From the IMG/VR virus record IMGVR_UViG_2925908680_000005, positions 1 to 43,384 of that record: a DNA stretch of 43,384 bases, one strand, 5' to 3'. This DNA comes from a virus. Lineage: Duplodnaviria; Heunggongvirae; Uroviricota; Caudoviricetes. How positions within the stretch are numbered: the stretch's first letter is position 1; each line of letters starts with the position of its first letter. Under the pieces are notes generated by a model. It had not been told where the DNA came from and did no database searches. It worked only from the letters and a program-made list of their open reading frames with translations. A program made the translations under genes and the position numbers. This document shows, piece by piece, positions 1-38,420 of the stretch.

Positions 1-1866
1 TCACGTAGTACCCAATATAGTCGTACCATCTATGGTTTCGACTCCCGCCGGGGCCAATAATTGCTGTATCCAGCCAATAGCATGCCCTCGCTCAACGCAC
101 TGGGAGAAAAACGCACGCTGCTTTGCTCTGGTAAAGGCAACAAAAAAAGTGTTTAGCTCTTCACCCCGTTGCGGCGTAAGGCTCCACCAAGTCTGATTGT
201 CGAGCCCATAAAATATCATCGTATGGAACTCAAGACCTTTGCTTTTATGGACGGTCATCAGAGCTACCTGGCCAATACCTTCGAACTCATCCAGCGCCTC
301 CGTCCAGCTGCTGCTGTGTTCTGCACACTCTTTCAGGAGAGTGACAAATCCACTCCACACCCTCTCAAAATCTCTTGCACGCTGGTAAGCGGGAAAGGAT
401 TGCCGAAGCCTAGGGGTCCCGACAAATTCAAGAAGCATCTCTGCAATCTCTTCCGCCGAATCCGGACTAGGCTGGCGATGCGCTAGCTCTGTCCTTAATT
501 TACGGACGAATGCTTCAAGCTTAACCAGCAATCGTTCCTGCGTGAGATCGTTATCCGGATCGGCAGCCTCCAAAAACAGATAGTTCTGCTGGGTCTGCTC
601 CCAGTTTTCCGGGCTTCGCTCCGTCGCTCCCAGGCGGAGTAAAGGAACAAATATACCGGTCAGCTCTTCACCAAGCAGATCCTGTATCTGAATTTCACCG
701 ACTGACCGGGCCGCATTTCTGATCCTGAGACCTCGTGCCGCAAAAGAGGGGGCTATTTCACCCTCAACCTGATCTGCCCGCATTCTGATCAGAATCGCTA
801 CATCATGTGGTGCAACACGCTCTGACTGAACCTCACGGCTCACCCATTCAGCCAGATAATTGTTCTCGTCATCTGCGCTCCGGAATTGCCAGATAGCAGA
901 AACCTCACCTTCGATTTCACGGGTCCCTTGTGCCTGCACTTCTTCCACATTATCGTCTATCCGGCGGGCAATCTCGTGCTGAATACGAACCAGATCCACA
1001 TGTGACCGCCAGTTAGAAAGCAGTGTTATGCGTCTGGCAGCAAAGTCGTTTTCAAACTGGTCAAAGGCGTCATTCATGGCTCCCGCCCATCCCATGATAC
1101 GCTGCTTATCATCGCCGACTGCCGTAAAGACAGCATCGCTACCATCGAATGCCGTTAGCAGCATGTCATACTGGGCATAGGTGGTGTCCTGGTATTCATC
1201 AAGAAAGACGATGGGATATGTTGCCTGTAAGGCCCGGCGGATATATGAATTTTCCTGAAGCAGCAGTTTTACAAGCCTGTTTATCATCGGGAAGGACAGG
1301 GATATCTCGTCGCCCCCGAAGAATTGTTCATGCCAGTAATCTGCTAACGCACGATGTACTTCAGATCCATTTGACAAGTCAATTGGCAGGTCTGTCAGAA
1401 GCAGTCTTCTCTCAAGCTGTTGAGCACTCACTCCGTGATAGCCATGTCGCTCAATAAAATCGTCATAATCCCTACGAAACGGATTAACAATCTGATACGT
1501 ACCGGGCGCATTGAACGGCTCAGGTAAAGCCGGACGAAACCGGTCCAGAAGCCCCTTGGTAAAGGCATCAAAAGTCATCGAATCAAAGCGCCGCGCCTGA
1601 TCTCTCGGGCAACGCTTTGCAACCCTTTCGGCGAGGTTTTGGGCGGCATCTTTTTTAAAGCTGATGGCCAGAATACGTTTGGGTGCCGGACAAATACCTG
1701 TCTGCAGAAGATAGGTCGCCTTCTGTGCCAGAAACTCAGTTTTTCCGGCACCGGCACCAGCGGTCACAAGGATGCTGCTATCGGTTTCACGTAAAGCCTC
1801 CCACGCTCTCCCTTCCAGACCACCGACACCCTGAGGTACCCAGTCGTCTCTGCTTACGCGGGTCAT
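1..1866 (-). CDS. UvrD/PcrA-like superfamily-1 DNA helicase (GajB-like partner of an OLD-family nuclease)
   Basis: 621-aa ORF ending at a stop codon at the window edge; helicase motifs visible in translation: AGAGAGKT (Walker A), DEYQDT (motif II), VGDDKQRI, TVHKSKGLEF, VAFTRAK; start overlaps upstream gene stop by 4 nt. Confidence 0.8.
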   Translation of the reverse strand: MTRVSRDDWVPQGVGGLEGRAWEALRETDSSILVTAGAGAGKTEFLAQKATYLLQTGICPAPKRILAISFKKDAAQNLAERVAKRCPRDQARRFDSMTFDAFTKGLLDRFRPALPEPFNAPGTYQIVNPFRRDYDDFIERHGYHGVSAQQLERRLLLTDLPIDLSNGSEVHRALADYWHEQFFGGDEISLSFPMINRLVKLLLQENSYIRRALQATYPIVFLDEYQDTTYAQYDMLLTAFDGSDAVFTAVGDDKQRIMGWAGAMNDAFDQFENDFAARRITLLSNWRSHVDLVRIQHEIARRIDDNVEEVQAQGTREIEGEVSAIWQFRSADDENNYLAEWVSREVQSERVAPHDVAILIRMRADQVEGEIAPSFAARGLRIRNAARSVGEIQIQDLLGEELTGIFVPLLRLGATERSPENWEQTQQNYLFLEAADPDNDLTQERLLVKLEAFVRKLRTELAHRQPSPDSAEEIAEMLLEFVGTPRLRQSFPAYQRARDFERVWSGFVTLLKECAEHSSSWTEALDEFEGIGQVALMTVHKSKGLEFHTMIFYGLDNQTWWSLTPQRGEELNTFFVAFTRAKQRAFFSQCVERGHAIGWIQQLLAPAGVETIDGTTILGTT

Positions 1867-3824
1867 TCATTCTCTCCTGACAGATTAAGCTTATCCGTAA
1901 CGTACTCAATGAGCGCCCTGAGCTCTACAGGAGCGGACGCAGTAACACCGCCGCCCGCGATACGGGAAAAAGCCGCAAGGTGAGTTTCGGGCTTACTGCG
2001 GCTCAGGAACAGATACGGATACCATTTGAAAGCGTCATCATAATGCGCGGTATACAAGGCAGGATTACCACCTGTTTTCAGCGTACTGACCTTTTTGGCT
2101 TGAATAGCAGCAGCACTACTCTGGGGTCCATTGCCACCTGGATTGGCAACCTGATAAGCGGTTGGAAAGGCGAGCAACATGGCAAAATCGAGATCAATGG
2201 GATAGGAAAAGAAAACTCCTTCCCTCCTGAATGCTTGAAGCCATTGACCTTGCAGGCCTTCATTATAAAGCTGTTGGTCGGTAAGCTGAGCAGCATTAGC
2301 ACCATTGGTGCTCCCCAAATTACTCCCGATAGCGGCCAAATTCTGAAGGCAGCTTCTCATGGCATTCGCCCCACCATGTCGGCGCCCCAGATCAAGATCG
2401 AGCAAAGTGGCATGTGGAATCTCAAGATCATTCAGCAGCCGCCAGAAATGCGCTACGAACCGTCCACCGAGCGGAACGACGGGAACGAATGATGGATCAA
2501 GGGAAACACCCATCTCTTCCGCAATTTTCGGAATAACTACTCGCTCTGAGTCTCCCTCACCCAGGATTACAAATCGCGCAAAATAAAGTTCGGGGTATGC
2601 CTTTACAGCCAGCCTGACATAAACGCTTGCCTCAACATCATCTTCAGGCAGGGTCAGTTCTCGGATCGATGAGCACCGAGCGCTCCGGTCCATACGAAAA
2701 TATCTCACTTCCTCCGGCTCTATCCGGCTCAGGATAGATGGGGAATGGCTAGATAGCAGAACCTGCGCGGAAGGCAGTGCGCCAATCTCTCTCGCCTGCT
2801 TGATGATGCGAGATAAAAAGAACGGTGACAGGCTGTTTTCTGGTTCTTCGATGGCAAGAATCGTCAGGTGAATACGGCGTAACTTATCCTGTTCAAATGA
2901 GCTGTCATCAGCAGGCAAAGAAAATGCTTCCCGCTCGGTTTCGAGCGTTGCCGCTGTAAGAGCGATATGGAACAGAGAGCGCTGACCGTCACTCAGCTCG
3001 GACAAACGACGCTCCTGACCTTCTTCATCAGGCGTAAAAGTAAATTCGGCTTTACGAACAAGCTCCTCAAAACGGTTCTCGATGAGCCTTAAACGCGGTT
3101 TACTGTCTGTATCGGCCTCATGGACCTGTTGCCAACGCTTCGAAAGACGCTCCAGCAGAAACTTCGACGGCTCCTCTTCCTCGAAACTGCTCTGGATCTG
3201 ACCGGCATTAACATAGCTTGCATCCCTAAATGCCGTCGACCATTTGGCAGCCTGCCATAACCGCCCTTTTAGAAGGGCGGTCACTTGAGTCGTCGCATCA
3301 CGATTTGCCGGTAAGTAAATAAACTGGATTGAAGAGCGCTCTACAGCCTGAACCCTGGAACAGTCATCCCATTCAAAATTATCATCCAGGGCTCTTATCC
3401 AGCGTATATCCTCCTCAATTGCTCCCTCCGGCGTACCGTCATCCGTCCATGTTGCTTGTAGTCGTATCCGGGCCTTAAGGGGCTCTCCCTCACCGGAAGC
3501 CGCCATCTGATTAAAGAACTCCGGAACGGCATCAAGAGGAGAAGCGTCTTGCTCTTCCAGTTCAGGGAAGGCAAGTACCGCTTCGACAAACAGACTGTCG
3601 CCAGACTGCAGCTCCTGCCGGTCAATAGGTATGTGAAAATCTCGACGCTGTACCGATCGCTGCGCTGATGTTGTACCAAACAACCTGGACACAGCTTGCA
3701 GCACTGCCGTCTTTCCGGAGCCGTTTCCGCCGACAAGTATTGTCAGTTCTTCCTCAAAATTTAGCTCGACCACCTCATGCCCGAAACAACGAAAATTCTG
3801 TAGCTTTATCTTCTCTATTTTCAT
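1863..3824 (-). CDS. OLD-family ABC ATPase with C-terminal TOPRIM nuclease domain (GajA-like / class 2 OLD)
   Basis: 653-aa ORF; N-terminus MKIEKIKLQNFRCF with Walker A GGNGSGKT; C-terminal TOPRIM-like glutamate (ILGEGDSE) and DxD (LLDLDLG); translationally coupled to the downstream helicase. Confidence 0.8.
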   Translation of the reverse strand: MKIEKIKLQNFRCFGHEVVELNFEEELTILVGGNGSGKTAVLQAVSRLFGTTSAQRSVQRRDFHIPIDRQELQSGDSLFVEAVLAFPELEEQDASPLDAVPEFFNQMAASGEGEPLKARIRLQATWTDDGTPEGAIEEDIRWIRALDDNFEWDDCSRVQAVERSSIQFIYLPANRDATTQVTALLKGRLWQAAKWSTAFRDASYVNAGQIQSSFEEEEPSKFLLERLSKRWQQVHEADTDSKPRLRLIENRFEELVRKAEFTFTPDEEGQERRLSELSDGQRSLFHIALTAATLETEREAFSLPADDSSFEQDKLRRIHLTILAIEEPENSLSPFFLSRIIKQAREIGALPSAQVLLSSHSPSILSRIEPEEVRYFRMDRSARCSSIRELTLPEDDVEASVYVRLAVKAYPELYFARFVILGEGDSERVVIPKIAEEMGVSLDPSFVPVVPLGGRFVAHFWRLLNDLEIPHATLLDLDLGRRHGGANAMRSCLQNLAAIGSNLGSTNGANAAQLTDQQLYNEGLQGQWLQAFRREGVFFSYPIDLDFAMLLAFPTAYQVANPGGNGPQSSAAAIQAKKVSTLKTGGNPALYTAHYDDAFKWYPYLFLSRSKPETHLAAFSRIAGGGVTASAPVELRALIEYVTDKLNLSGENE

Positions 3825-3872
3825 TCCTGATTACCTTTTTGTAAGAGATGCCTTTAAAAGTTAGCGAGCCCC

Positions 3873-5108
3873 CTAAATAACCCACTCATCAATCATATCA
3901 GCCCAGTCCTGCAACATAGATGTACGCTGATCACGATACTCGGCTTTGTTATATATCGCCCTCACACCTTTTTGCTCATGTGCCAGGCATTTCTCTATCC
4001 AATCGGTGTTGTAACCGGCTTCATGGAGTAAGGTACTTGCTGTACGCCTCAGATCGTGGGGTCCAAACTTGGCAAGGGACTGCCCTTCTTTCTGAGCCAG
4101 CTTGTAAGTCATCGTCATCACCCGGTTTAGCGTGGCACTGCTCATGGGCACGTCAGAATCGTAACGCGACGGCAGAACATAATCCGATCCACCGGAGAAC
4201 GTCTTCAAAGCGATGAGAATGTCCATGGCCTGCCTGGATAGAAACACCAGGTGAGGATTTCGCCGCTTCATCCTTTCTTTAGGGATCGTCCAGAGCGCTT
4301 CGCTGAAGTTGATCTCACTCCAGGTAGCATTCGTCAGCTCGCTTTTTCGCACCATCGTCAACAACAACAGTTTTACCGCTGCGCGGATCGATGGTGATGT
4401 ACCAATACGCCCCATGTACTGATACATGATCCTAATTTCTTCGGGCGTCAGGGTTCGATCTCTCGGCTCAAACCTGGCAATGCTTGCTGGCCGCACCAGG
4501 TCTGCTGGGTTCTCAACCTTCTGGCCTCGCTCAGTGGCCCAGCGGTATACCTGGAGTACAATCTCACGCGCATGAACCGCCGTAGCAGGCGCACCGCGCT
4601 CTACGATGGCGTCGGTAAGTGCTCGCAAGTCCTCGTGGGTGATTTCGGTCAGCTTCTGATTGCCGAATTTCGTTTCCAGCTCTCTCGTATAAACCGAGCG
4701 GCGCATATCACGGGTAGAGTCGGCCATCTGGTAGCCACGTAGCCACTTTTCCGCCCAGGCACCAAAGGTTTCAGCCCCTTTTACACGCGCCTTGTCCCGT
4801 GCCTTCTCCTTCGCTGGCGACTTTCCATCAGCGACCATCCGCTTGGCTTCACTAAGTCGCTCACGGGCTTCTGCCAGAGTGATACCCCCAACGCCATAGC
4901 GGCCAAAGGTGATTGTCTCTTGCCTGCCATTGATCGAGTAGTTGTAACGGAATGAGATAGAGCCGGCAGGAGTGACAGCCACATAGAGGCCATCCCGGTC
5001 ATTCACCTTGTAGAGTTTATCCCTCGGCTTGAGGTTGCGCAGCTTGGTATCGGTCAGCAAGAGTCTTATCCTTCTTCGATTCCAATACCATGCTGGAAGA
5101 TTACCCAA
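3873..5108 (-). CDS. int: tyrosine site-specific integrase (P4/CP4-57-like, DUF4102-type N-terminus)
   Basis: 411-aa ORF; N-terminal LTDTKLRNLKP...GLYVAV arm-binding-type domain; C-terminal catalytic region HDLRRTAST...AHE...Y typical of tyrosine recombinases. Confidence 0.9.
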   Translation of the reverse strand: MGNLPAWYWNRRRIRLLLTDTKLRNLKPRDKLYKVNDRDGLYVAVTPAGSISFRYNYSINGRQETITFGRYGVGGITLAEARERLSEAKRMVADGKSPAKEKARDKARVKGAETFGAWAEKWLRGYQMADSTRDMRRSVYTRELETKFGNQKLTEITHEDLRALTDAIVERGAPATAVHAREIVLQVYRWATERGQKVENPADLVRPASIARFEPRDRTLTPEEIRIMYQYMGRIGTSPSIRAAVKLLLLTMVRKSELTNATWSEINFSEALWTIPKERMKRRNPHLVFLSRQAMDILIALKTFSGGSDYVLPSRYDSDVPMSSATLNRVMTMTYKLAQKEGQSLAKFGPHDLRRTASTLLHEAGYNTDWIEKCLAHEQKGVRAIYNKAEYRDQRTSMLQDWADMIDEWVI

Positions 5109-5153
5109 AAATCGAGCAATAAAACCAATAAAAACAGATAGTTAAATAATTTC

Positions 5154-5242
5154 GATACCATGAACACACAGGATCAAGCAGCATGGTATCGGCTATCACT
5201 CATGGCATCATGTCTCGATAATACCACCTTGGATACCATGCT
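5154..5242. repeat. three copies of GATACCATG (two direct at 5154-5162 and 5234-5242, one inverted at 5182-5190) upstream of int; candidate integrase or regulatory binding sites
   Basis: read directly in the int upstream intergenic region. Confidence 0.4.
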
Positions 5243-5290
5243 CAAGCGGTGCTTCCCGCTGCCATCAGTTGCCAAATAATGCCAGACATA

Positions 5291-5320
5291 AAAACAAAAA
5301 AGCCCATCAAAACATGGGCT
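5291..5320 (-). terminator. intrinsic terminator ending the late (lysis) operon before int
   Basis: stem AGCCCAT/ATGGGCT with 6-nt loop, followed on the minus strand by a U-run (plus-strand AAAACAAAAA). Confidence 0.6.
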
Positions 5321-5492
5321 TGAGTGTAATTTAATGCCAGTTTGTACCAGCTAATGCCTAACGTGTGATCATTCCACTCAATTATTTACGACAACCATAA
5401 CCAATTGAGTGATAACATTTTTCCAAAACTTCATCTTTCTCATACCGTTTTATATACCGTCACCGGAAATCAGTACCATGAAAAATGCCATG

Positions 5493-5975
5493 CTATCTGG
5501 TCAAAGTGTCGTACTGTTTTTCGCAGACTCTTCCGGCTTCGGCTGCCCGGTCAGCATACTCTGCCAGTTGTCTATTTCTCTCGAGAGATTTGCTGAACAC
5601 GTCGGCAAGCAAAACTCCGGTATCTGCGGCTGACGCCCCAGCGCCGACAATGGCGTTATACTGCCTGAGCTGCTCACGGATGGCAACGAGCTGTTGCTGC
5701 AACCGGCCAGCGCGAGCGGCAGCATCAAGAGCATCATTGCGCGCCTGGTCGATCCTCTGCTGAGCTTCACGTTCATTGGTCGCTTTCTCCTGTTCGTAGT
5801 GCTGACGAACTCTCTCATCTTCGACTTTGCGGTCTTCCTTCGCCTGCGCATACCCGGCGTCGTACTGACGGCTGCCGTGTACATTCCAGGCAACAACTCC
5901 TGATATGACCAGAACAGCAAGCATCACCACGATAACCAACTGTTTCCAGTATGCTTTTACGAATGCCCAGATCAT
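5493..5975 (-). CDS. i-spanin (Rz-like lysis protein)
   Basis: 160 aa; N-terminal transmembrane segment ([18 protein letters not shown]) then charged coiled-coil-like region; last gene of lysis cassette. Confidence 0.6.
5501..5776 (-). CDS. o-spanin (Rz1-like outer-membrane lipoprotein) embedded in the i-spanin gene in another frame
   Basis: alternate-frame ORF with lipoprotein signal and lipobox ([26 protein letters not shown]) then Pro/Ser-rich short mature part. Confidence 0.5.
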   Translation of the reverse strand: MNVKLSRGSTRRAMMLLMLPLALAGCSNSSLPSVSSSGSITPLSALGRQPQIPEFCLPTCSANLSREIDNWQSMLTGQPKPEESAKNSTTL

Positions 5976-6601
5976 ACCGCCAGCACCTTACTGGCAGTGA
6001 TATACCGCGCGCGCCGGTCGTCGATGCCGTTCCTGCCACCATTGATAATCAGAGTTACACGTGCAATATCGCCGGTATACTTCATGCATCCTTTGCTAAC
6101 GAAGAACCACGCCGCGCTACGAGCCGCGTATTCGTCCTGCGCCAACAGTTCAGGATTCTCAAGCAGGTCCACTTTCAGGCCGTTTCCGCAATCACGATAG
6201 TTATTCAAACCGGTAATCTGGATAAGTCCACGCCCTCGGTAATTCCAGCCATCGCCGGGGGCATTATTCCCCATGCGTTTGCTGTACACCAGATTGGCGA
6301 TCGCACGCTGGCGCTCAAGTGGCAATGGTGGCTCGCCTGCACGACGACCCAATGCGTTAGCCTGTCCCTGAGTGAGACGACCGGCACGAACGAAGTTAGC
6401 CAGTCCGGTGACGCTGTAATTGAAATTCTCCTGCAACCTGGTGAAGCCACCAGACTCATGCCCGACCTGAGCAATAAACATTGCCTGATCTTCTGCTTTG
6501 CTAATACCAAACTCTTTCATCGCAGAAGTTATATGCGAGAACCAGCGTGCGGCCAGCGCCTCGCTAATACCAGCAGCTCGCTGGAATTGTTTAATCTCCA
6601 T
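5972..6601 (-). CDS. endolysin, glycoside hydrolase family 19 (chitinase-like lysozyme)
   Basis: 209 aa with GH19-type blocks ([27 protein letters not shown]); sits between holin-like genes and spanins. Confidence 0.8.
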
Positions 6602-6884
6602 GTTTAGACCTCGTTATCTTGAAAATTTGTACCACGTTCCCTTTTGTCCTGATGAGCGCAGCCAGGAACACAACTTTGATGATGACTTCTGACCAGTCGG
6701 CGCTGACGTAGTACCCGTAGAAGGTCCGGATAGGTACACTGGCAGCAACGACGATCAGCAGATAGGCGAGCCAGCCTCCCCACCAGCGATGGCGTGACCC
6801 GTCACGGCGGAACAGAAACGCTCGGATTGCAATGCCGCCGCAGATAGCGGCATTCAGGATGATAAGCAGCTCAGGACTGGTCAT
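6591..6884 (-). CDS. small membrane protein, holin/antiholin-like
   Basis: 97 aa, 2-3 predicted transmembrane segments, directly upstream of endolysin. Confidence 0.45.
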
Positions 6885-7284
6885 CGTCTTTTCTCCCCGG
6901 GATCAGGTCACGCGGATTTTCAGAACGGTGATACAGCCAGATGCCAATGCGGACAGCGACGATAGCCGACACGAACGCCCCGGCAGAAAACACAATCCCC
7001 TTTTCAAATGAGTCCTGCGTAATCGTAGGGATCATGCTGGCAATACCGATAAGAATGGATGCTGTCGCCTTATAAAAGAGAAGGCCGCAGAAGAAGCTGA
7101 GAAACGCCAGAAGTAACCGCCTCTTTATGGGATACTCCACCGCCGAGGTAACAAAAATTACCGCACCAGCAAGCGCCCCTAAAGCCACCTCCGGCGGCAC
7201 ACCCGCGACCACAGACATTAGCGCGCTCAGGCTAAGCCCCTGATTCAGCGATTCCGTGGTTAACGAGTGCGACATAGTGACCAC
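6871..7284 (-). CDS. holin-like membrane protein
   Basis: 137 aa with several hydrophobic helices; first gene of lysis cassette. Confidence 0.45.
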   Translation of the reverse strand: MVTMSHSLTTESLNQGLSLSALMSVVAGVPPEVALGALAGAVIFVTSAVEYPIKRRLLLAFLSFFCGLLFYKATASILIGIASMIPTITQDSFEKGIVFSAGAFVSAIVAVRIGIWLYHRSENPRDLIPGRKDDDQS

Positions 7285-7380
7285 CGTTTAATGTGCATAA
7301 AGAACCCCCTTAGTTGATGAGCTCATCATACACAATAAACCATATGTGGATTGACTTTGATCGGATAACCATTAACGAAA

Positions 7381-7395
7381 TTACCTTTTGGGTGA
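7381..7395. promoter_or_regulatory. imperfect copy of the TTACC-N5-GGTAA palindrome (TTACC TTTTG GGTGA) about 30 bp upstream of the acyltransferase start
   Basis: read directly. Confidence 0.35.
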
Positions 7396-7424
7396 TATAC
7401 TAATGGCAAATCAATGAGTAATAT

Positions 7425-8540
7425 ATGGACATCCTTTCAATGATAAAGAATGAATTAAAATCAATCCAAATTCTTAGAGGTTTGGCGGCACTTATGGTCG
7501 TTCTATACCACTTTAGGACCGTTCTTAATTATGATAATGTCAGGATGGGTGATTATCTTTTTGGTAAGGGGTTTATTGGTGTTGATTTATTTTTCGTAAT
7601 TAGTGGATTCATAATGGCTTACACGACCAACTTGACTCATGACGCTATTGCCGATGTAAAATCATTTGCAATTAAAAGGGTTAGTAGAATATATCCTGTT
7701 CTTTTTACTTCATTTATTATTGCGTCTTTATCATTCATGAATTTTGAAAGGGTATTATCACAGTCTTTTTTTGAAACACTAAGCAGCCTTGCCTTGATTC
7801 CTACAACAAGTTCTTTGCCGCCATTTTTTATAGATACACATTCAATACTTGGTGTTAGGTGGACTTTAAATTATGAGGTATATTTCTATTCTATTTTTGC
7901 GATATCTTTATTTTTTGGAAAGAGAAGGTATTATGTTCTACTGGCATGGATTATTATGACAGTATTTTTTACTCAAATACTAATTAATGGATCATTCAGT
8001 GCCAAGGCTGTAAGCCCTAGATTTGAAAGTCCATGGTTGTCAATGATTACAAACTCTATCGTTCTTGATTTTGCAATTGGCGTTATTGTAGCAATGGCAA
8101 TTGAGGCGGGAATAATAATAAATAGAAGATTATCAATTGCCTCTTTGGTTTTTGTTGCTTATGTTTCAATGAACCAGATAGCTGTAGTAAAGGGTCACGG
8201 ACTCTCAGAGTTTGGAATGTACGCAGCAATAATTGTTTATTTATGTGTTTGCCTTGAAAAAAATGGATTTAGTTTTAATTCGCCAGCGCTAGAGCATTTG
8301 GGTAATATTTCTTATTCTTTATACCTATTGCATCTGTCGGTAAGTACATTCATCGGAATAATAGTTACAAATCTCGGAGTTAGGGAATACTTTTCAAATG
8401 GCATTTATATGGTAACACTTGTAGCCATTAGTATAATGTCAGCACACATCTCGTATAAGTATATTGAGTTATCGCTATCGAGGAGGGTAAGAGGATGGAT
8501 GATGATAAAATCTGGCATCCTTGCCAAAAATAAAAATTAA
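7425..8540 (+). CDS. acyltransferase family 3 membrane protein (O-antigen acetyltransferase-like; likely lysogenic conversion gene)
   Basis: 371 aa, multi-pass membrane protein with family-3 N-terminus (RGLAALMVVLYHF...GVDLFFVISGF); strongly AT-rich relative to flanks; opposite strand to surrounding late genes. Confidence 0.8.
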   Translation: MDILSMIKNELKSIQILRGLAALMVVLYHFRTVLNYDNVRMGDYLFGKGFIGVDLFFVISGFIMAYTTNLTHDAIADVKSFAIKRVSRIYPVLFTSFIIASLSFMNFERVLSQSFFETLSSLALIPTTSSLPPFFIDTHSILGVRWTLNYEVYFYSIFAISLFFGKRRYYVLLAWIIMTVFFTQILINGSFSAKAVSPRFESPWLSMITNSIVLDFAIGVIVAMAIEAGIIINRRLSIASLVFVAYVSMNQIAVVKGHGLSEFGMYAAIIVYLCVCLEKNGFSFNSPALEHLGNISYSLYLLHLSVSTFIGIIVTNLGVREYFSNGIYMVTLVAISIMSAHISYKYIELSLSRRVRGWMMIKSGILAKNKN

Positions 8541-8541
8541 T

Positions 8542-29909: not shown

Positions 29910-30116
29910 TTACTGACCAAGCAGCGTTTTACCGCTGGTATTAGCGGTTGATGTGTCGCCCTGAGAACCGGTAAGCAGCGTAGAACTACGACCAGCAGCA
30001 GCGCGACGGCGACGTGTTTCTTCGTCGCGGGCATCAACAACAGCGGCATCCTGCTCCTGTGGTGCTGCCTGAACTTCTGGTGTTGCAGGCACTGATGGTG
30101 AGCTACCCATGCACAT
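29910..30116 (-). CDS. small protein upstream of portal
   Basis: 68 aa; its ribosome-binding context (TCAATGACTCCG) is a 12-bp direct repeat of the portal gene's. Confidence 0.4.
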   Translation of the reverse strand: MCMGSSPSVPATPEVQAAPQEQDAAVVDARDEETRRRRAAAGRSSTLLTGSQGDTSTANTSGKTLLGQ

Positions 30117-30184
30117 ATCAATGACTCCGTACGCAATTAAATTATTACCAATTTAACCACATATGATTTATTTATCGTAGATAG

Positions 30185-30221
30185 TTGACATTTAACGCAC
30201 AAATTATTACCTTTCAGGTAA
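30185..30221 (+). promoter_or_regulatory. candidate promoter (TTGACA at 30185-30190) with perfect operator palindrome TTACC TTTCA GGTAA at 30207-30221, upstream of the tRNA leader
   Basis: read directly; -10 element is weak or ambiguous. Confidence 0.4.
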
Positions 30222-30543
30222 CTAAAGAGTTCATTCCGGTTACTAACCTGACTGGCTTGTCGTTAAATTGAACAGGTGGAGTGAGCTTTTGTTTTGAGCA
30301 GTACGGCGTATGGCACATGCGCCGATAGCGGTCTGGATACGTTTAAGGGGCACCCTCCCTTGCTCGGGCAAACGAACCAGGTAGCCGGAATGTGCAAGTC
30401 GAGCGGTTTTATTCCGCGCACGGGGATTCACCATCCCGGCGATTCGGTGTGACGCCTCGGAAGAGACGAGGGTACAACGATGAGAGCATTTATGGAGCCG
30501 CGACAAAGTGTGGCGCCTTAACAGGCTAAGTGCTCTCAGCGTT

Positions 30544-30620
30544 GTGGCATTAGCTCAGTTGGACAGAGCAACCGCCTTCTAAGCGGTTGGTCGCAGGTTC
30601 GAATCCTGCATGCCACGCCA
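30544..30620 (+). tRNA. tRNA-Arg (anticodon UCU), phage-encoded
   Basis: cloverleaf folded by hand: 7-bp acceptor GTGGCAT/ATGCCAC, D-arm GCTC-AGTTGGACA-GAGC, anticodon stem ACCGC/GCGGT with loop CTTCTAA, T-arm GCAGG-TTCGAAT-CCTGC, discriminator G, encoded CCA. Confidence 0.85.
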
Positions 30621-30663
30621 GAATCACGCCTAAGGACCGTGATGCCAGAAGTTCCAGGTGCTT

Positions 30664-30705
30664 GGCGGTGATGGTTTCCCTTGAAGGACTATCACCGCCC
30701 TTTTT
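30664..30705 (+). terminator. intrinsic terminator 1 downstream of tRNA
   Basis: GGCGGTGAT...ATCACCGCC stem followed by CTTTTT. Confidence 0.5.
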
Positions 30706-30783
30706 ACAGCAGGACGCCATTGCGATGACTTCATGCTGTAAACCAGTACAGCCACGGAAGGCATAACTCATTGCTTCCAGTTC

Positions 30784-30807
30784 GCCCGGTTCGCCGGGCA
30801 TTTTTTT
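30784..30807 (+). terminator. intrinsic terminator 2 downstream of tRNA
   Basis: GCCCGG-TTCG-CCGGGC stem then ATTTTTTT. Confidence 0.7.
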
Positions 30808-30850
30808 AAGGTGTGAATCATGAAATACGAATTCGATGGATTTTGATGTC

Positions 30851-30862
30851 GTGACATGTCAC
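30851..30862. repeat. palindrome GTGACATGTCAC (copy 2 of 3; 14-mer CGTGACATGTCACA)
   Basis: read directly. Confidence 0.7.
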
Positions 30863-30866
30863 AAAC

Positions 30867-30893
30867 AGCCAGCCGATGAGCTGGCTTTGTTTT
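30867..30893 (+). terminator. intrinsic terminator 3 downstream of tRNA
   Basis: AGCCAGC-CGATGA-GCTGGCT stem then TTGTTTTA. Confidence 0.55.
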
Positions 30894-30936
30894 ATCCTCA
30901 CCAGAGGATATCAGCAGCATTATCCCCTCCAGAGGA

Positions 30937-32412
30937 TTAAGCATAGGGATCGTAATCTGTAATGGCCTTGCCTTGCTGGTTCTGCTGACCGGGAATTCGC
31001 AGACGCTTCGACACCGGGAAAGCAAACGTCAGCAGTAGCGCATCGCCTTTACCCGGCGAACGCCCAAGCCGCTCCTTGATATCTTCCTTCGGTTCGATAA
31101 CGATTTTACCGTCCACGCGAACTTTGTACTCTGCCGCCGACAGGTCATCCGCTGTTTCCTGGTCATCCAGCATGCCGCCCAGCCTCAGCCATGTCTTGCA
31201 TGCATTGAACATCTCCCCACGCTTGTTAAGCATCTGCGGGTCAGTGGACGCACCGCCGAACGGAACAAGTTGCCATGTACGTCCCCAGCCATCACCGATT
31301 GACTTCAGACCAGTTCCGTAACCGAAGTCGATGAACACCGCGTCAGCCAGGTACTGGTCTTCAAAGTCAGCGATACGCTTCGCCATAATCAGATCGTCAG
31401 TGGTCTTGTTGCCAGTCCACAGCACCTTACTGTGCAGCCCCTGCCGCAGGTATATCACAGCGTCATCAACGCCGGAATATGCCGGGTCAACGCCGATTAT
31501 CACCGGAGCATGTGCAACCTGCGCAGCGGTTACCACCCGTTTCATTGCCTCGTCAGTAAGGCCGGTAGGGATAAACTGCAATTCAGATGCATCAGGGAAT
31601 ATGCCACGCACACGGATTTTAACGAAGTCGCTGTCTTCCCCGTAGTCATCAACCCATTTCTGCAACTGCTGTTTGTTAGTGCCTTCCACCGTCCGGCTGT
31701 CAATCTGCGCAGTTTTCCAGCGGTGTTTATATTTGCGGAAACATTCGCGAAAACGCCCGGTGTTACGTGTAGGGTTTCCGAACGCCACCCAGATAATCTC
31801 AGTGTCTTCGTCCGTAAGCGCACCCTCAGCGACTTCCCACACCAGATCCGCAATGTTCGACGCTTCATCGAATACCACGATGATGCGTTTGCGCTCGTTG
31901 TGTAGTCCGGCGAATGCCTCAGTGTTGTGCTCAGACCAGGGGATTGCGTCAGCTCGCCACCGCTTGTCGTGCCCAGGGTCATTGCTGTACATCGCGGTAG
32001 CGGTACAGGTAAACCAGTCTTTCGTGATAGCAAGGTTCGACCACTTGATAATTTCCGGCCAGGTCTTCGTTCGTAGCTGGTTGTCGGTGTTGGCGGTCAC
32101 CACGACCTTACAATCCTCGCAAGTGGACATGCCCCAGTTGATCAGCATTGAGATGAATGCGGATTTACCAATACCGTGACCAGAAGCACGTGCCAGCATA
32201 AGCGGCTGATAACGCGTCTCTGGATTCTGCAGGTGATCACGTATCTCTCGGAACGCATCAGCCTGCCACTGACGTGGGCCGGTGGCATGTGCCAGTTCAG
32301 TCCCCTCTTCCCCCCACGGGAACGCATAGAGGGCATAGCCAAGCGGATCGTGAGTGAACCCTGCAATATCCTCGATCAACTGCTCTTCAGGAGATAACGC
32401 TGTATCTGTCAC
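30937..32412 (-). CDS. terminase large subunit
   Basis: 491 aa with ATPase-type N-half and nuclease-type C-half; overlaps small subunit gene stop. Confidence 0.85.
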   Translation of the reverse strand: MTDTALSPEEQLIEDIAGFTHDPLGYALYAFPWGEEGTELAHATGPRQWQADAFREIRDHLQNPETRYQPLMLARASGHGIGKSAFISMLINWGMSTCEDCKVVVTANTDNQLRTKTWPEIIKWSNLAITKDWFTCTATAMYSNDPGHDKRWRADAIPWSEHNTEAFAGLHNERKRIIVVFDEASNIADLVWEVAEGALTDEDTEIIWVAFGNPTRNTGRFRECFRKYKHRWKTAQIDSRTVEGTNKQQLQKWVDDYGEDSDFVKIRVRGIFPDASELQFIPTGLTDEAMKRVVTAAQVAHAPVIIGVDPAYSGVDDAVIYLRQGLHSKVLWTGNKTTDDLIMAKRIADFEDQYLADAVFIDFGYGTGLKSIGDGWGRTWQLVPFGGASTDPQMLNKRGEMFNACKTWLRLGGMLDDQETADDLSAAEYKVRVDGKIVIEPKEDIKERLGRSPGKGDALLLTFAFPVSKRLRIPGQQNQQGKAITDYDPYA

Positions 32413-33005
32413 TGATTACCATCCTGACGTTCTTTGAGTCGCTTCCTGGCTGCTGCTATGCGATCAGCAATTGTCACATTCACATTAACATCCAGACGTT
32501 CTTTGAACGCGTTGACATCAACATGCTTACCAATCAGCTCAAGGTTCTTCACCTTGTCAGGCCATTTAATTTTTTTGAGGATTGTCTCTATCGAATCCTC
32601 GTTCATGTTCATGATGGTCGATGACAGATCAAAGCCGCTAAGCGTAGTGCGCCAGATTTTCGGCCACTCGCGGATTGGCTTAAGGCTCCCATCGTCGTTG
32701 AGGATGTCGATCACGTCCATCTGGTCGATCTCCACCAGGCGCCTGAGAACGTAATCAGCACTGACGCGCATTCGTTTGTTGCGCTCCTCCATCAGCTCGG
32801 CAATCCGTTTTTGAATGCGTTCATCGCGCATCATGACACTGGCTTTAACTGCCGCTGTATTTGGGGAGAATCCTGCGTTAATCGCTGCCTGAGTCTGGTT
32901 TTCAGGCGTTTTGATGTATGACTGGCAATAAGCCTCCTGCATTGCTGTTAGTGGCTTAAATTGCGTTGATTTACGTTTATAGGTTTTAGGTTCAGCAGGC
33001 ATCAT
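32409..33005 (-). CDS. terminase small subunit
   Basis: ORF track extends to 33083, but the first 26 codons are low-complexity and overlap a repeat/operator, so the start was taken at the internal Met pair (MMPAEPKTYKRK). Confidence 0.6.
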   Translation of the reverse strand: MMPAEPKTYKRKSTQFKPLTAMQEAYCQSYIKTPENQTQAAINAGFSPNTAAVKASVMMRDERIQKRIAELMEERNKRMRVSADYVLRRLVEIDQMDVIDILNDDGSLKPIREWPKIWRTTLSGFDLSSTIMNMNEDSIETILKKIKWPDKVKNLELIGKHVDVNAFKERLDVNVNVTIADRIAAARKRLKERQDGNQ

Positions 33006-33022
33006 AACCACCGTGGTAATAG

Positions 33023-33037
33023 TTACCGTTGTGGTAA
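33023..33037. promoter_or_regulatory. perfect operator palindrome TTACC GTTGT GGTAA at the head of the packaging/late operon, within a short direct repeat (GTGGTAATAGT x2)
   Basis: read directly. Confidence 0.55.
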
Positions 33038-33115
33038 TAGTACCATGCAAAATAAAGCCGCCATAGTTGGCGGCAGTATTCAAAACCCATCAAATTCATC
33101 ATGCATAATCTACTC

Positions 33116-33127
33116 GTGACATGTCAC
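33116..33127. repeat. palindrome GTGACATGTCAC (copy 3 of 3; 14-mer CGTGACATGTCACA)
   Basis: read directly, between the 33124 gene stop and terminase small subunit. Confidence 0.7.
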
Positions 33128-33465
33128 ACTATTAATTTCGTTTCATGCCAGCCTTTAGTCACCCAGCATTGCGAGTCACCATTGCACGGGAATGAATTCA
33201 CAGGAACTCTCTCGCCGCACTTACCGCAACGTTTTCTGCTGATCGATTTTATACGCCCGCGCACGCGTGCATCATCCTGGCGGATCAGTAACGCTATATA
33301 CTCACCAAATTCGTAAGGCGCACGCCCGGGGCGACGCGTGGCACAGTTACGCTCCAGCATTTCAATTTCCTGAGCATCAAGCACAATCTCCAGCTTACGC
33401 ACACCAGATGCAGCTTGTCTGGCTCTCTGAGCGGCTTTGCGCTCTGCTGCTGATTTAGCCATCAA
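33124..33465 (-). CDS. hypothetical protein with C-terminal Cys-rich zinc-ribbon-like segment (possible regulator)
   Basis: 113 aa; CGKCG...CNGDSQC; immediately upstream of terminase genes. Confidence 0.4.
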   Translation of the reverse strand: MMAKSAAERKAAQRARQAASGVRKLEIVLDAQEIEMLERNCATRRPGRAPYEFGEYIALLIRQDDARVRGRIKSISRKRCGKCGERVPVNSFPCNGDSQCWVTKGWHETKLIV

Positions 33466-33736
33466 TATTTACCTTTATCGCGAACACCTTTACCGGTTTA
33501 TCACCGAAGTGCGGATGTGTGATTGTCTTGATTTCATATCCGTCATACGGGACATCAATTCTGCGACTGAAGTCGTCGCGCTTCGGATATCCCTTTGTGA
33601 TAATCAGGCGGTCATACTCCCGGAACATAATTCGCTTATTCCAGTAGTCATTACACAGGCGATACTCTTCTGTTTTCTCCCCGCGAATCATGGCATCGAA
33701 GTATTCACCTTTGACAGCAAGCTGTAGGTTAGCCAT
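33455..33736 (-). CDS. hypothetical protein, possibly ASCH/PUA-like
   Basis: about 93 aa from MANLQLAVKGEYFDAMIRGEKTEEYR; family assignment is from memory only. Confidence 0.3.
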   Translation of the reverse strand: MANLQLAVKGEYFDAMIRGEKTEEYRLCNDYWNKRIMFREYDRLIITKGYPKRDDFSRRIDVPYDGYEIKTITHPHFGDKPVKVFAIKVNIDG

Positions 33737-33996
33737 TACCGCACCTCCAGTCTCCATACCGCCTGACCAATCCGGCTGGCATAGGTATCTTTGGATACTG
33801 TTCCGTCTTTAGCCATTTCCATAAGAATTTTGCGCAAATCTGCCGAACGCCATTCTTCATCAGGAAATTCCTTCTCCATTGCCAACCGCAGATTCCAGGT
33901 TGCTATCGTGAATGGATATTCCCCGCCGAGAGCTTTATCTTGCAGGGCAGCACGGGAACGCATCACCTGCAAAACCTTCTCTTTTACATCCATCAT
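33736..33996 (-). CDS. hypothetical protein
   Basis: 86 aa ORF in the same operon. Confidence 0.35.
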   Translation of the reverse strand: MMDVKEKVLQVMRSRAALQDKALGGEYPFTIATWNLRLAMEKEFPDEEWRSADLRKILMEMAKDGTVSKDTYASRIGQAVWRLEVR

Positions 33997-34568
33997 TTTG
34001 CCTCCTGCGGCGGTTCTGGTAACGGCATCCAGTGAGTTACGTCATCCAAGATATTTCCTGATAAATACGTGAAAGCCCTATATTTTTTGTAATCAATTGG
34101 ATTTACAACCCAGTTCCAATATGCGGCCACGATTTCACCTTGACTAAATGCCAGTAACATTTTGGTGTCTTCCGGCATTCGCTCACTACAGCTTATCCAA
34201 CCATCAGGAGTTACCGGAGAGTTGCCTGATAGCTCGTTCAACTTGTAAGTTTGGCTTACAGGTTCGGCTCCCAGTTCCGCTATGCGCTTTTTTGCTGTTT
34301 CCAGTTCGTTCAGCAGTGTTAGCACGGTAGCCGGATTGGCTGCGGCGATGAATTCAGCATTGGCCTGCTGTTCCATTTGGAAATCTTCATCGAAACCGCT
34401 TTCAGGATGCGCTCCTTCAATTCTGCAAATGGGGATATATCCAGCAGCCTCGCGATGAATTAGCGCATCATCACCATCAAATCGGCCCTCTCCATATTCG
34501 AGCGACCACTCGCCACACGTTGCTTTTTCTGCCTTAGCACGCAGTGCCTGATAGTCAATCTTGTTCAC
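33993..34568 (-). CDS. Ead/Ea22-like protein with C-terminal DUF551-like tail
   Basis: N-region DYQALRAKAEKATCGEWSLEYG...AAANPATVLTLLNELE is typical Ea22-like; C-terminus ends WMPLPEPP; probable GTG start at 34568 with GGGAGA ribosome-binding site (ORF track extends to 34649). Confidence 0.5.
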   Translation of the reverse strand: MNKIDYQALRAKAEKATCGEWSLEYGEGRFDGDDALIHREAAGYIPICRIEGAHPESGFDEDFQMEQQANAEFIAAANPATVLTLLNELETAKKRIAELGAEPVSQTYKLNELSGNSPVTPDGWISCSERMPEDTKMLLAFSQGEIVAAYWNWVVNPIDYKKYRAFTYLSGNILDDVTHWMPLPEPPQEAK

Positions 34569-34857
34569 TGGTTGTCTCCCTTGCTGGGCTTTCGAATGTA
34601 TCAAACTCAAACAACTTAACCACGTCATCAAACAGGACATAATCGCCATCAGAATCTTCAGTCATGTCAGCGCCACAATCCTGACCGAACGAGTCACAAC
34701 CATCCATATCAAGCTCGTATCGCTTGAGTTTTGCGATATTTGATAAATTCAGCGCCAGTACAGCCAGGTCATAAACCTCTTCGGCAGTGACATCGCTGTT
34801 CAGTCCCATTTCATGGCGATATATGATTTTTTCTACTCGTTGTTTTGTGATTGTCAT
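34555..34857 (-). CDS. hypothetical acidic protein
   Basis: 100 aa. Confidence 0.35.
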   Translation of the reverse strand: MTITKQRVEKIIYRHEMGLNSDVTAEEVYDLAVLALNLSNIAKLKRYELDMDGCDSFGQDCGADMTEDSDGDYVLFDDVVKLFEFDTFESPARETTSEQD

Positions 34858-35336
34858 TTTTGCTCGCCTCCCTGTTCTTCCAGAAAAATACGCATAGTCT
34901 CAAGCATCTCTTCGGTGTCATACGGTGACAACTTGTCACGCAGGATGTGTTCAATGCTGTTAATGAACTTGCGGATTGCTTTGCGTTCAATTTCAGCCAG
35001 GAAAGCATCGGTGGCTGGTGCTTCTGGTGCGTGCATAATTGCGACCACCATTGCGTCATGCATACAGTCAATGTTGCAACAGCCAACTGCTTCTGCTGTT
35101 TTGAACTCACGATACATGTTTTTGAACGCATCTGTTTTACACCATGCGTTTATGTCCTTAAATGCCGCATTCTCCGCCGCCAGCGCATTAGCACGCACCA
35201 GTTGCACTTCCAGTTGCGTTGCCAAATCGCTGATCAGCTTTGCCACACTACGCATATCAACGGCACCACATTCAGCTTTCAGTTCCGAAGCCATCTCATG
35301 CCCGGCGGCAACTAACCCTTTGATATTACTTTCCAT
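34854..35336 (-). CDS. hypothetical protein
   Basis: 160 aa. Confidence 0.35.
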   Translation of the reverse strand: MESNIKGLVAAGHEMASELKAECGAVDMRSVAKLISDLATQLEVQLVRANALAAENAAFKDINAWCKTDAFKNMYREFKTAEAVGCCNIDCMHDAMVVAIMHAPEAPATDAFLAEIERKAIRKFINSIEHILRDKLSPYDTEEMLETMRIFLEEQGGEQK

Positions 35337-35397
35337 CTTTACCCTCGCTTATCCACATAACTTATTGATTACATTGATAACTAAAAAGATCGTCGAT

Positions 35398-36006
35398 TCA
35401 TGCCGATCTATTTTTCATCAGTGATTCATAAAACTTTTGCCACTTATGCCGACCGAAATTAGCCTTCGAGTTACAGCTAGAACAAAGGCAAATAAGGTTC
35501 TCCTGACGACAGTCTTGCTTGTCGTAATTGATGTGATGAGTTGTTAGCCTTTTGTCTGTTCCATCACAACCTGGGTTCTGACAAGTAAAACCATCTCGCT
35601 CAATAACCCTCTTGCTCGTTTCTCGGAAATCCCACGGATACGGCAATCTCGATAATCCACCAGACCAGTTTGGATTTCCTTCCCCCTTCATCAGAGAAGA
35701 ACGCATTATGTTGGAACACTGTTTCGAGCAGCATTTATGACGCTTCTCATGACTCAAGAAAACGGAGAACGAAGATCCGCATACGCAGCATATTTTTAAT
35801 ACTCGCTTTAGTTCCCGATTTACCGTCTTGCCTCGCTGTGAAATTCCTACACACTGAAGTGAGCAGAACCTTGAAGATGAGTTGGCTCGCTTAACCTGAT
35901 ATTGCCTGCCACATACGGAGCAAACCTTTTCGATTTTCCCACCCTTCCAATTCGGGTTTTTATCACCGGATACAATCAATCCCGCAGCATTGGGCTTCTC
36001 GCTCAT
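35398..36006 (-). CDS. HNH endonuclease
   Basis: 202 aa, Cys-rich with HNH-like signature (HHINYDK...N...CxxCN); AT-rich codon usage. Confidence 0.65.
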   Translation of the reverse strand: MSEKPNAAGLIVSGDKNPNWKGGKIEKVCSVCGRQYQVKRANSSSRFCSLQCVGISQRGKTVNRELKRVLKICCVCGSSFSVFLSHEKRHKCCSKQCSNIMRSSLMKGEGNPNWSGGLSRLPYPWDFRETSKRVIERDGFTCQNPGCDGTDKRLTTHHINYDKQDCRQENLICLCSSCNSKANFGRHKWQKFYESLMKNRSA

Positions 36007-36356
36007 AGTTCCTCAACCTCCCATCCACCACCGAGCTTTTTAGGTTTTGGATAAGCAACCTGAAAGACAAACGGATAGCTGTCTGCCGCAACCTTCATCT
36101 TGACTCTCGCATCGTCAGTAAAGACTGACTTACTTCCCTTAACGTCCACCATCACCAACTGCCCGTCAGCCAACATCACGGCAAAATCTACAGTCAGGAA
36201 GCAGTTGTCAGCTAACCGCAGCTTGATACCCTCGAATCGATACCAGGCGATTTCCCCTGCACGTTTACGCTGCTCAAGGTGCTGGCAATACGCAGATTCT
36301 GTTTTGTTCATCTGTCCTGTTTTGAGTCGACCAAGAGCCTGTATCTGTTTTCTCAT
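36003..36356 (-). CDS. small PD-(D/E)XK-like nuclease fold protein (VRR-NUC/DUF1064-like)
   Basis: 117 aa with D...VDVKG...K pattern. Confidence 0.35.
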   Translation of the reverse strand: MRKQIQALGRLKTGQMNKTESAYCQHLEQRKRAGEIAWYRFEGIKLRLADNCFLTVDFAVMLADGQLVMVDVKGSKSVFTDDARVKMKVAADSYPFVFQVAYPKPKKLGGGWEVEEL

Positions 36357-36359
36357 GAT

Positions 36360-36436
36360 TTACCCTTGAGGTAATTAAAAACCACATAAGACACGAAATC
36401 AATAGAGTTTAGAATATTTTGTTACCCAACAGGTAA
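36360..36436 (-). promoter_or_regulatory. internal early promoter region bracketed by two perfect operator palindromes (36360-36374 TTACC CTTGA GGTAA; 36422-36436 TTACC CAACA GGTAA)
   Basis: read directly; the proximal site overlaps the ribosome-binding region of the 36003..36356 gene. Confidence 0.55.
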
Positions 36437-36448
36437 CTATCGAGGCGT

Positions 36449-36468
36449 AAAAAAATGCGCTATCGCGC
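36449..36468 (-). terminator. short intrinsic terminator after the P-like replication gene
   Basis: GCGC-TATC-GCGC stem followed on the minus strand by a 7-nt U-run. Confidence 0.4.
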
Positions 36469-36473
36469 TGGTA

Positions 36474-37274
36474 TTACTTGATAAATCCTGCCGCCTTTCC
36501 TCGCCTGTATTCCTCCATCAGCCACTGCGCCGGTGTTATTCCCCCCAAGGTGGCGGCGTTAGGCATACACCCGAAACTTCGCCCTGGTGGATGGTAAACG
36601 TCTCTCCCTGTGTCCGGAGGCGTACTCATGGGCTCTGGCTTTGCCTGTATGCTGATCACCGGATCGGGTATCTGCTGTCCGGAAGCCACCTTTTTCGCCC
36701 AATCATCGAGCAGCCTGCGCGCGTGTTTCTCAACCTCAATCTCGCTAAGCTGGCGCTGATACATTGCACGGCGGGTATCACATACGACCCAGTACATAAC
36801 CGGATGTCGCCACGGGAATCTTTCGGGACCACCAGGATATAAACTTTTTTCCTTGCTGTACCGGTGAAACTCCGCCATCACATCGTCAATGGTAACGCCA
36901 AGAACCATCTTGCTGTCTTTACACCACTTGATAAATTGCCCTGGCGACGGCCAGAACGGAGATTCACTGGCGCGGGCGTGGCGCATACCAGCAGAAACCT
37001 GTTCACGGGTTCGGATCCCCCCTTCGGCAAACGCAGCAATCCACTGCTGTTTTGCAGCAACTTCCTGCTCTGGCGTCTTCAGGTTGGTTACCACTGCCGC
37101 CGGAAACAGTTGTTTCAGCTGTTTGAAAAGGGCATCAACAAGCCTCTCTGCTGACATGTTCACCACATTGTCATTGTTGACGTATTGATGCTCATAACCT
37201 GACATGCGAGAAAGGGCTTCTCCGTCACGGTTTTGTATCGCGGTAAAAACGTTGTTCACAAGAAATCCTCCCAC
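36474..37274 (-). CDS. replication protein P-like (helicase loader)
   Basis: 266 aa; central region (FPAAVVTNL...QWIAAFAEGGIRTREQVSAGMRHARASESPFWPSPGQFIKWC) resembles lambda P as recalled from memory. Confidence 0.7.
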   Translation of the reverse strand: MGGFLVNNVFTAIQNRDGEALSRMSGYEHQYVNNDNVVNMSAERLVDALFKQLKQLFPAAVVTNLKTPEQEVAAKQQWIAAFAEGGIRTREQVSAGMRHARASESPFWPSPGQFIKWCKDSKMVLGVTIDDVMAEFHRYSKEKSLYPGGPERFPWRHPVMYWVVCDTRRAMYQRQLSEIEVEKHARRLLDDWAKKVASGQQIPDPVISIQAKPEPMSTPPDTGRDVYHPPGRSFGCMPNAATLGGITPAQWLMEEYRRGKAAGFIK

Positions 37275-38143: not shown

Positions 38144-38158
38144 GATTAATCTCCGCTA

Positions 38159-38359: not shown

Positions 38360-38420
38360 GGTAAGCCCTGTTATTAGTATTGGGATTACGGTTATTTTGT
38401 GCTGACACAAAAAAAAGATC

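Follow-up and report, generated by a model that had tools for sequence, protein, structure and literature searches.

The stretch of DNA analysed here (the window, 43,384 nucleotides in all) contains, at positions 5061 to 5492, what we read as a chimeric attachment site ('attI') between two elements arranged in tandem at the guaA 3' end: a mobilizable island (IME) of the GIsul2/PIME type and a phiV10/epsilon15-like prophage. In the same reading, to which we give a probability of roughly 85%, the short repeats upstream of the integrase gene serve the IME integrase (Int) as arm-type sites. The region is the seam of two neighbouring mobile elements, an arrangement that is already well known: tandem accretion with chimeric attI sites has been reviewed, and tandems of IMEs and prophages are noted as frequent (PMC5704250). 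What is added here to the known is modest: candidate arm sites are mapped explicitly for the GIsul2/PIME integrases, a Gabija defence system is located between int and alpA, and the chimeric core is seen to be mutated.

The integrase and the repeats of its arm

The integrase gene next to the repeats (3873-5060, minus strand; int395 hereafter) starts at a TTG codon preceded by an AAGGA ribosome-binding site, and encodes a P4-type tyrosine recombinase of 395 amino acids, assigned to the GIsul2 Int family by Pfam and homology. Its Pfam domains, Arm-DNA-bind_3 (E=5e-21), Phage_int_M and Phage_integrase, correspond to the arm-binding, central and catalytic parts of such enzymes. The protein shares 88.5% amino acid identity with the GIsul2 Int of pAB3 over residues 1-393 (tblastn), and 55% with the prophage's own 418-residue integrase, in an alignment running from M1. 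In all ten of the longest contexts that were available, int395 adjoins guaA and alpA-repA-trbJ-trbL.

The window has exactly three copies of GATACCATG, two on the plus strand (5154-5162 and 5232-5240) and one on the minus strand (5182-5190). An earlier reading, made from the sequence only, had reported two direct copies and one inverted copy in about 90 bp, and this count is confirmed, with a span of 87 bp. The expected number of copies is 0.34, and none of 100 dinucleotide-preserving shuffles gave three. When up to one mismatch is allowed, 19 matches are found window-wide, seven of them within 5043-5497, where about 0.2 would be expected. The enrichment and the shuffles together indicate that the repeats are real, correctly placed and non-random. 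The copies lengthen to about 11 nt, GATACCATGCT, and over 10 nt, 5153-5162 and 5182-5191 are perfect inverted copies of each other (a palindromic pair); the first base of the copy at 5154 lies 214 nt ahead of the first base of the att core described below. Two further candidates bring the motif copies of the IME P arm to five: AATACCATG at 5084-5092 (plus strand), 24-32 nt 5' of the int start codon, and an inverted variant, GATGCCATG, at 5201-5209 (minus strand), which the sequence-only reading had missed. Both are also present in HN257 and in GIsul2.

Conservation of these copies was estimated from 80 relatives of int395 (88-99% protein identity) in Vibrio, Marinobacter, Halomonas, Pseudomonas, Bordetella, Xanthomonas, Cupriavidus, Brucella and other genera, which yielded 79 distinct upstream regions for alignment. 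The non-coding identity of these regions to the window has a median of 60%. Mean conservation is 0.90 over the five motif copies and 0.64 over the remainder of the arm (Mann-Whitney p=2e-12, with related sequences treated as independent). The inverted copy at 5182 scores 0.98 and ranks first among 299 nine-mers; the copies at 5084, 5154 and 5201 score 0.95, 0.94 (rank 12 of 299) and 0.94, respectively, and that at 5232, the least conserved of the exact copies, is moderate only (0.77, rank 72 of 299). Over the 79 regions, the best-conserved nine-mers of the arm are found in the copies at 5182, 5155, 5085 and 5201, and the stem of a terminator comes next.

The same layout is found in related elements. 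Upstream of the IME int of HN257, at about 76% DNA identity, the series AATACCATG, GATACCATG, CATGGTATC, CATGGCATC is kept. The P' arm of the IME studied here carries motif-like direct copies, GATACCATT and TGTACCATG, at +72 and +84 from the core. GIsul2 of pAB3 shows the same P-arm series of (G/A)ATACCATG copies together with the terminator hairpin, as well as two direct P' copies at about +74 and +86. This pAB3 locus was recognized as GIsul2 because of its neighbours, alpA, repA, repC, trbJKL, ars, ISVsa3 and sul2. A megablast search of the plasmid collection had missed it because its DNA identity is too low, and it was found in protein mode; a megablast match to a K. pneumoniae plasmid was set aside as an unrelated remnant.

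A motif that recurs in the P arm and again in the P' arm, away from the core and beside an integrase endowed with an arm-binding domain, is best read as a set of arm-type sites that the IME Int would bind. The proposal of the sequence-only reading that the repeats are plausible integrase sites therefore stands: they occupy the P arm directly 5' of an Arm-DNA-bind_3 integrase gene, they are the best-conserved non-coding blocks in the 79 relatives, and GIsul2 has the same layout. The N-terminal Arm-DNA-binding domain of Int would contact the repeats while the C-terminal domains occupy the core some 140-285 bp off, and the P arm would be bent into an intasome by which integration and excision are made directional. 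The candidate consensus (G/A)AT(A/G)CCATG would then apply to a family of integrases through which sul2 and immune systems spread among Proteobacteria. Arm sites are not mentioned in the GIsul2 study, where the word 'arm' is absent (PMC9376610).

The prophage family has repeats of the same geometry, at equivalent positions, but made of another word. In its P arm, ATACCGTC (with T as a variant of the last base) occurs as an inverted pair and as direct copies; in its P' arm it occurs two or three times in direct orientation, at +73, +85 and +104. In the window, phage-type sites are seen at 5441-5449 (CATACCGTT), 5453-5461 (TATACCGTC) and 5472-5480 (AGTACCATG), and the GenBank record of epsilon15 marks TATACCGTCA as an integrase site. 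Two related integrases would in this way use two different arm words and one shared core, arm binding being predicted for both. The integrases of lambda, P4, P22 and HP1 offer a general precedent: they have an N-terminal arm-binding domain, and their direct and inverted repeats of 9-11 bp flank a short core on either arm at distances of 70-285 bp. In contrast with these lambda-type systems, the motif here is family-specific and no sites for IHF, Xis or AlpA were identified; a scan of 5000-5500 for the IHF consensus WATCAANNNNTTR gave none.

Alternatively, the repeats may serve mainly as operators of the int promoter, recognized by AlpA or another regulator, or by an Int that acts as a repressor only, rather than as arm sites for recombination. 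The copy at 5084 lies about 10 nt 5' of the int ribosome-binding site, and autoregulation by Int at sites close to attP is known in phage P4. The copy at 5232 falls inside a promoter-like match, in the spacer of the single weak minus-strand hit of a sigma-70 scan; however, this match is no better than those found in shuffled sequence, and we do not claim an int promoter from it. The P' arm, which lies at the other end of the island and has no int promoter, carries motif-like copies too, and the layout parallels that of the phage attP, whose repeats are annotated as Int sites. We therefore consider it improbable that regulation is the main role of the repeats. The two roles are not mutually exclusive: with arm-type sites as the preferred reading, the copy at 5084, placed beside the ribosome-binding site, may still let Int repress its own gene.

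An island and a prophage joined at a common core

To the left of the repeats, the window contains only genes of the island. It begins at the stop codon of gajB (1-1866, minus strand), which encodes the UvrD-type helicase of Gabija (PADLOC GajB, E=6e-215), and continues with gajA (1863-3824, minus strand), which encodes its ATPase and OLD/TOPRIM nuclease (PADLOC GajA, E=5e-238; Pfam AAA_15/AAA_21 and OLD-like_TOPRIM). The two genes are adjacent, their PADLOC matches are full-length, and both are cargo of the IME. Positions 1-5382, comprising gajB, gajA, int395 and 322 nt 5' of int, are 99.98% identical to an int-guaA junction found in E. coli 203740 and many other strains. In these island-only strains the homologous segment forms the right-hand end of an approximately 16-kb island inserted between yfgI and guaA, in which gajB likewise lies beside int and guaA, and the order at the right border is int, P arm, core, guaA. 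The rest of the island comprises a HEPN gene, the ptaRNA1 toxin, trbL, trbJ, repA and alpA, and includes no phage structural genes. According to the RefSeq annotation of the 203740 island and Pfam calls in two loci (L007 and L016), int, alpA, a replicase, trbJ and trbL occur together and a full T4SS is absent, as in the PIME gene set. Int and Gabija belong to this GIsul2/PIME-type IME and not to the prophage. Tools that delineate prophage borders or report phage-encoded defence would mis-assign both the Gabija cassette and int in a case of this kind.

To the right, from 5383 on, the window corresponds to a phiV10/epsilon15-like podovirus (Uetakevirus), with 95% identity to phiV10 over 80% of 5383-30000. 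The first prophage gene is that of an Rz-like spanin (DUF2514; 5493-5975, minus strand), recognized by homology to phiV10-like phages and from the loci that carry the Rz protein, and the last one in the window is a DUF1382 gene (43190-43384, plus strand), at whose stop codon the window ends. Three phage-only strains carry the same phage, 99.95-99.97% identical, with Rz adjoining yfgI.

The limits of the two similarities define the junction. Resemblance to the IME-only strains stops at 5382 and resemblance to phiV10-like prophages starts at 5368, which places the shared core at 5368-5381. This core, TCATTCC-ACTCAAT, equals the last 15 nt of guaA (ATTGAGTGGGAATGA) minus one C/G. In K-12 the attB site is TCATTCCCACTCAAT, which reads ...caaATCATTCCCACTCAATggtagc, and its complement, ATTGAGTGGGAATGA, encodes the last four codons and the stop codon of guaA. 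The position agrees with the core attgagtgggaatgatt published for phiV10, epsilon15 and ZX5 (PMC9782041), and with the core recombination motif GAGTGGGA of GIsul2 (PMC9376610). The segment 5061-5367 is the P arm of the IME and, as judged from the 99.98% match to int-guaA junctions, constitutes the island side of attR in island-only strains; the segment 5382-5492 is the P' arm of the prophage, homologous to the P' arm of the epsilon15/phiV10 attP and to the attL of phage-only lysogens beside yfgI. The IME on its own targets the guaA 3' end at the GAGTGGGA motif, IME-only strains joining the P arm to TCATTCCCACTCAAT, the guaA stop region. In strain 203740 the IME attL, beside yfgI, has the form B arm-TCATTCCCACTC-TAATATC, from which the IME crossover can be placed within ATCATTCCCACTC. 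A search for a second core copy in the window with up to three mismatches returned chance-level matches only, and the other att copies lie outside the window.

The following scenario would account for this structure. The P4-type tyrosine integrases of the IME and of the prophage would act on one common core, formed by the final 15 nt of guaA, and the entry of one element into the att site of the resident one would have joined the IME P arm to the phage P' arm.

The chromosomal arrangement is seen in CP024997.2, a 5.17-Mb chromosome that is 100% identical to the window over 1-15975 and 30084-43384 (29 kb compared). Loci were located through exact copies of the window's Rz-like, DUF3799 and DUF1382 proteins. 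Among the loci with the exact Rz-like protein, seven, one of them in CP024997.2, have the succession Rz, int395, gajA, gajB, an ORF of 347 aa (hyp347) and alpA; repA and the start of trbJ come next in those that extend far enough. In CP024997.2 the genes to the left of the window are hyp347, alpA, repA and trbJ, and to the right are found the gene of the 418-residue integrase (int418), the core TCATTCCCACTCAAT and guaA. The int418 gene overlaps the last 4 nt of the window, and of the DUF1382 gene, and the attR core, which is the guaA end, begins 1,445 nt past the window. An integrase of this type followed by guaA accompanies the DUF1382 protein in all ten contexts shown. With the IME attL end of the array known from other strains carrying the same island, the order in the source is yfgI, attL, IME (...trbL, trbJ, repA, alpA, hyp347, gajB, gajA, int395), chimeric att, prophage (Rz...DUF1382, int418), attR, guaA. 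Independent tandems, made of a diverged IME and a phiV10-like prophage, are present in five further complete E. coli genomes, including HN257.

The sequence-only reading had viewed this region differently. It had seen phage genes on both sides of int, phage-gene stop codons at both edges and no junction in the window, and had proposed either a prophage carrying the defence cassette as cargo or a free or circularly permuted phage genome; an intact attP was one of its two suggestions for the region upstream of int, and 5109-5295 the segment it proposed to search for att repeats. Several points might have favoured such a phage. The att site does have a complete P-core-P' layout; 43.4 kb is within the size range of the family, relatives of 44-45 kb being known; and ordinary relatives have a minus-strand int gene right after DUF1382, so that the joined ends of the window would mimic the normal gene order. 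However, the chromosome CP024997.2 is identical to the window over the 29 kb compared; beyond gajB on the left it has IME genes, and beyond DUF1382 on the right the phage int, attR and guaA. The module formed by int and Gabija is 99.98% identical to islands devoid of phage genes; gajA and gajB are the only genes of the window to the left of int, and the rest of the IME lies to the left of the window, so the cassette is no prophage cargo. The right edge is indeed the stop codon of a phage-type gene, DUF1382, but the left edge is that of gajB, which is not a phage gene. A mobile-element junction does exist in the window, at 5368-5381, which is 48 bp beyond the end of the segment flagged by that reading (3825-5320), and this core also falls outside 5109-5295.

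Nor is the site an intact phage attP, which is available for comparison from another locus (L039). The P-O-P' layout combines an IME P arm and a phage P' arm around a core with a 1-bp deletion, int comes from the IME as does the P arm, the phage int is elsewhere and the context is chromosomal. The P-arm motif is moreover of the ATACCATG type, different from the ATACCGTC type of the phage family. Finally, when the chimeric junction was sought by exact pattern in IMG/VR and in the JGI metagenomes, in a CC and a CCC version of the core, no viral or metagenome contig was retrieved; these scans lend no support to a free-phage form and reveal no intact-core version of this chimera. We regard a free phage genome or a single prophage as very improbable. 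An aberrant excision comparable to that of lambda gal/bio phages, giving a 43.4-kb recombinant phage, was also envisaged and dropped once the chromosomal context was known. As to the idea that the repeats are chance or relic sequence without function, it has their short length in its favour and is hardly credible at all, since none of the shuffles reached three copies and the positions are kept across genera while the flanks fall to about 60% identity.

A one-base deletion in the chimeric core

The core of the tandem, TCATTCCACTCAAT, is one C short, so that the motif GAGTGGGA becomes GAGTGGAA. This 14-nt core is present in all seven loci that have the junction (L016-19, L021, L023 and L024), and as these belong to different assemblies, a sequencing error in a single assembly is not the cause. 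The deletion is absent from IME-guaA junctions, from the yfgI junctions of the same phage, from the attR of the source chromosome and from the HN257 tandem. The seven loci are nearly identical, which is compatible with one ancestral event.

With tyrosine recombinases, the overlap regions of the partner sites must match in both sequence and length. Given this rule, and since the missing base lies inside GAGTGGGA, recombination at the internal chimeric core is probably impaired by the deletion, which may block the separate excision of the IME or of the prophage. A stronger version is that the deletion acts as a lock on both integrases, the IME with its Gabija system and the prophage being either fixed or mobile only as a composite of about 55-60 kb, through the outer attL and attR. 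On balance, we consider this unlikely. If it were true, Gabija would in effect have been captured by the prophage, as a stable neighbour or as a cargo that can be mobilized in cis.

Relation to known elements

GIsul2 (Harmer et al. 2017; PMC9376610) is close to the present IME in several respects. Both target the guaA 3' end with the core motif GAGTGGGA, both have a backbone of int, alpA, repA, trbJ, trbL and the ptaRNA1 toxin, and the repeats and hairpin of the P arm, like the two direct P' copies, are common to the two. The GIsul2 Int was found to excise and integrate the element at guaA in recA-minus E. coli (PMC9376610). The IME differs from GIsul2 in that Gabija and the 347-aa ORF, between int and alpA, replace ars, CR2 and sul2, and no repC is seen; moreover, its int-proximal att site is joined to a prophage instead of guaA, and has a core one base short.

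The IME also resembles the recently described PIME family, whose members integrate at guaA and often carry immune systems (bioRxiv 10.64898/2026.01.12.698999). Their genes int, alpA, replicase, trbJ and trbL, their position next to guaA and their large accessory region with immune systems are all shared with the island studied here. Tandem arrays with prophages were looked for in that preprint (bioRxiv 10.64898/2026.01.12.698999) under the word 'tandem', which has no occurrence in the searched text.

On the phage side, the attP sites of phiV10, epsilon15 and vB_EcoP_ZX5 (Uetakevirus) share with the window a core at the guaA end and a P' arm homologous to 5382-5492. Unlike in these phages, the P arm and the adjacent int of the window are not those of the phage, whose int and ATACCGTC-type P arm lie beyond the right edge. 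The whole conforms to site-specific tandem accretion (PMC5704250): two elements whose integrases are related yet distinct share a single target and have a hybrid att site between them. Particular to this case are the partners, a Gabija IME and a podovirus prophage at guaA, and the loss of 1 bp from the core of the internal att.

Other features of the arm

A search of 4900-5700 against Rfam gave nothing near any gathering score. The IME arm carries an intrinsic terminator on the minus strand (5290-5321, with the stem at 5300-5321 followed by a T-run), whose stem is conserved and whose loop is variable across the family. In island-only strains this terminator would serve guaA, since the native guaA terminator is displaced to attL; analogous hairpins are present in attB and in the phage attP. 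In the tandem studied here, it sits 3' of the phage lysis genes.

Sequence features around the junction core

The chimeric core (5368-5381), which joins the P arm of the integrative mobilizable element (IME) to the P' arm of the phage, has one C fewer than attB, attL and attR, and this holds for all seven loci carrying the junction. The core is intact in the independent IME-phage tandem of strain HN257 (L122, position 7488). The right half of the core and part of the phage P' arm together form a 14-nt inverted repeat (5375-5388 and 5398-5411; CACTCAATTATTTA / TAACCAATTGAGTG; 86% complementary), which may represent an additional core-type half-site. As a reference for the genuine phage attP we used L039, a 42,971-bp ENA metagenome scaffold holding a phiV10-like genome in which int416, an intact attP and Rz are contiguous and which also encodes a ParDE toxin-antitoxin pair. 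L039 probably represents the phage in free or circular form.

On the IME side, the stretch separating the arm sites from the core contains a second family of repeats (5270-5285, 5332-5340 and 5352-5358). It consists of two copies of TAATGCCAG and one of TAATGCC, together with a strongly conserved TTGCCA block. These repeats could be sites for a directionality factor of the AlpA/Xis type, or for another accessory protein.

Cargo and distribution of the IME

A 347-aa ORF without a Pfam match is found between gajB and alpA, to the left of window position 1 (L016, 16099-17142), and shares a single accessory slot with Gabija. In the related element GIsul2, by contrast, nothing separates int from alpA, so that the slot looks like a cargo hotspot. 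The integrase type itself is very widespread: dozens of gamma-, beta- and alphaproteobacterial genera encode proteins 88-99% identical to it. Among plasmids, tblastn matches were obtained in 3,740 records, about 1,900 of them at 80% identity or more.

Interior of the prophage

The prophage contains a tRNA-Arg gene (anticodon tct, 30544-30620, plus strand), which bears no relation to the attachment site. It also harbors an IS3-family insertion sequence (11916-13189, minus strand; HTH_Tnp_1 and rve, two overlapping ORFs), beside a Bro-N antirepressor ORF (11482-11991). In sibling strains, several draft assemblies break precisely at this point. Partial decay of the prophage is possible.
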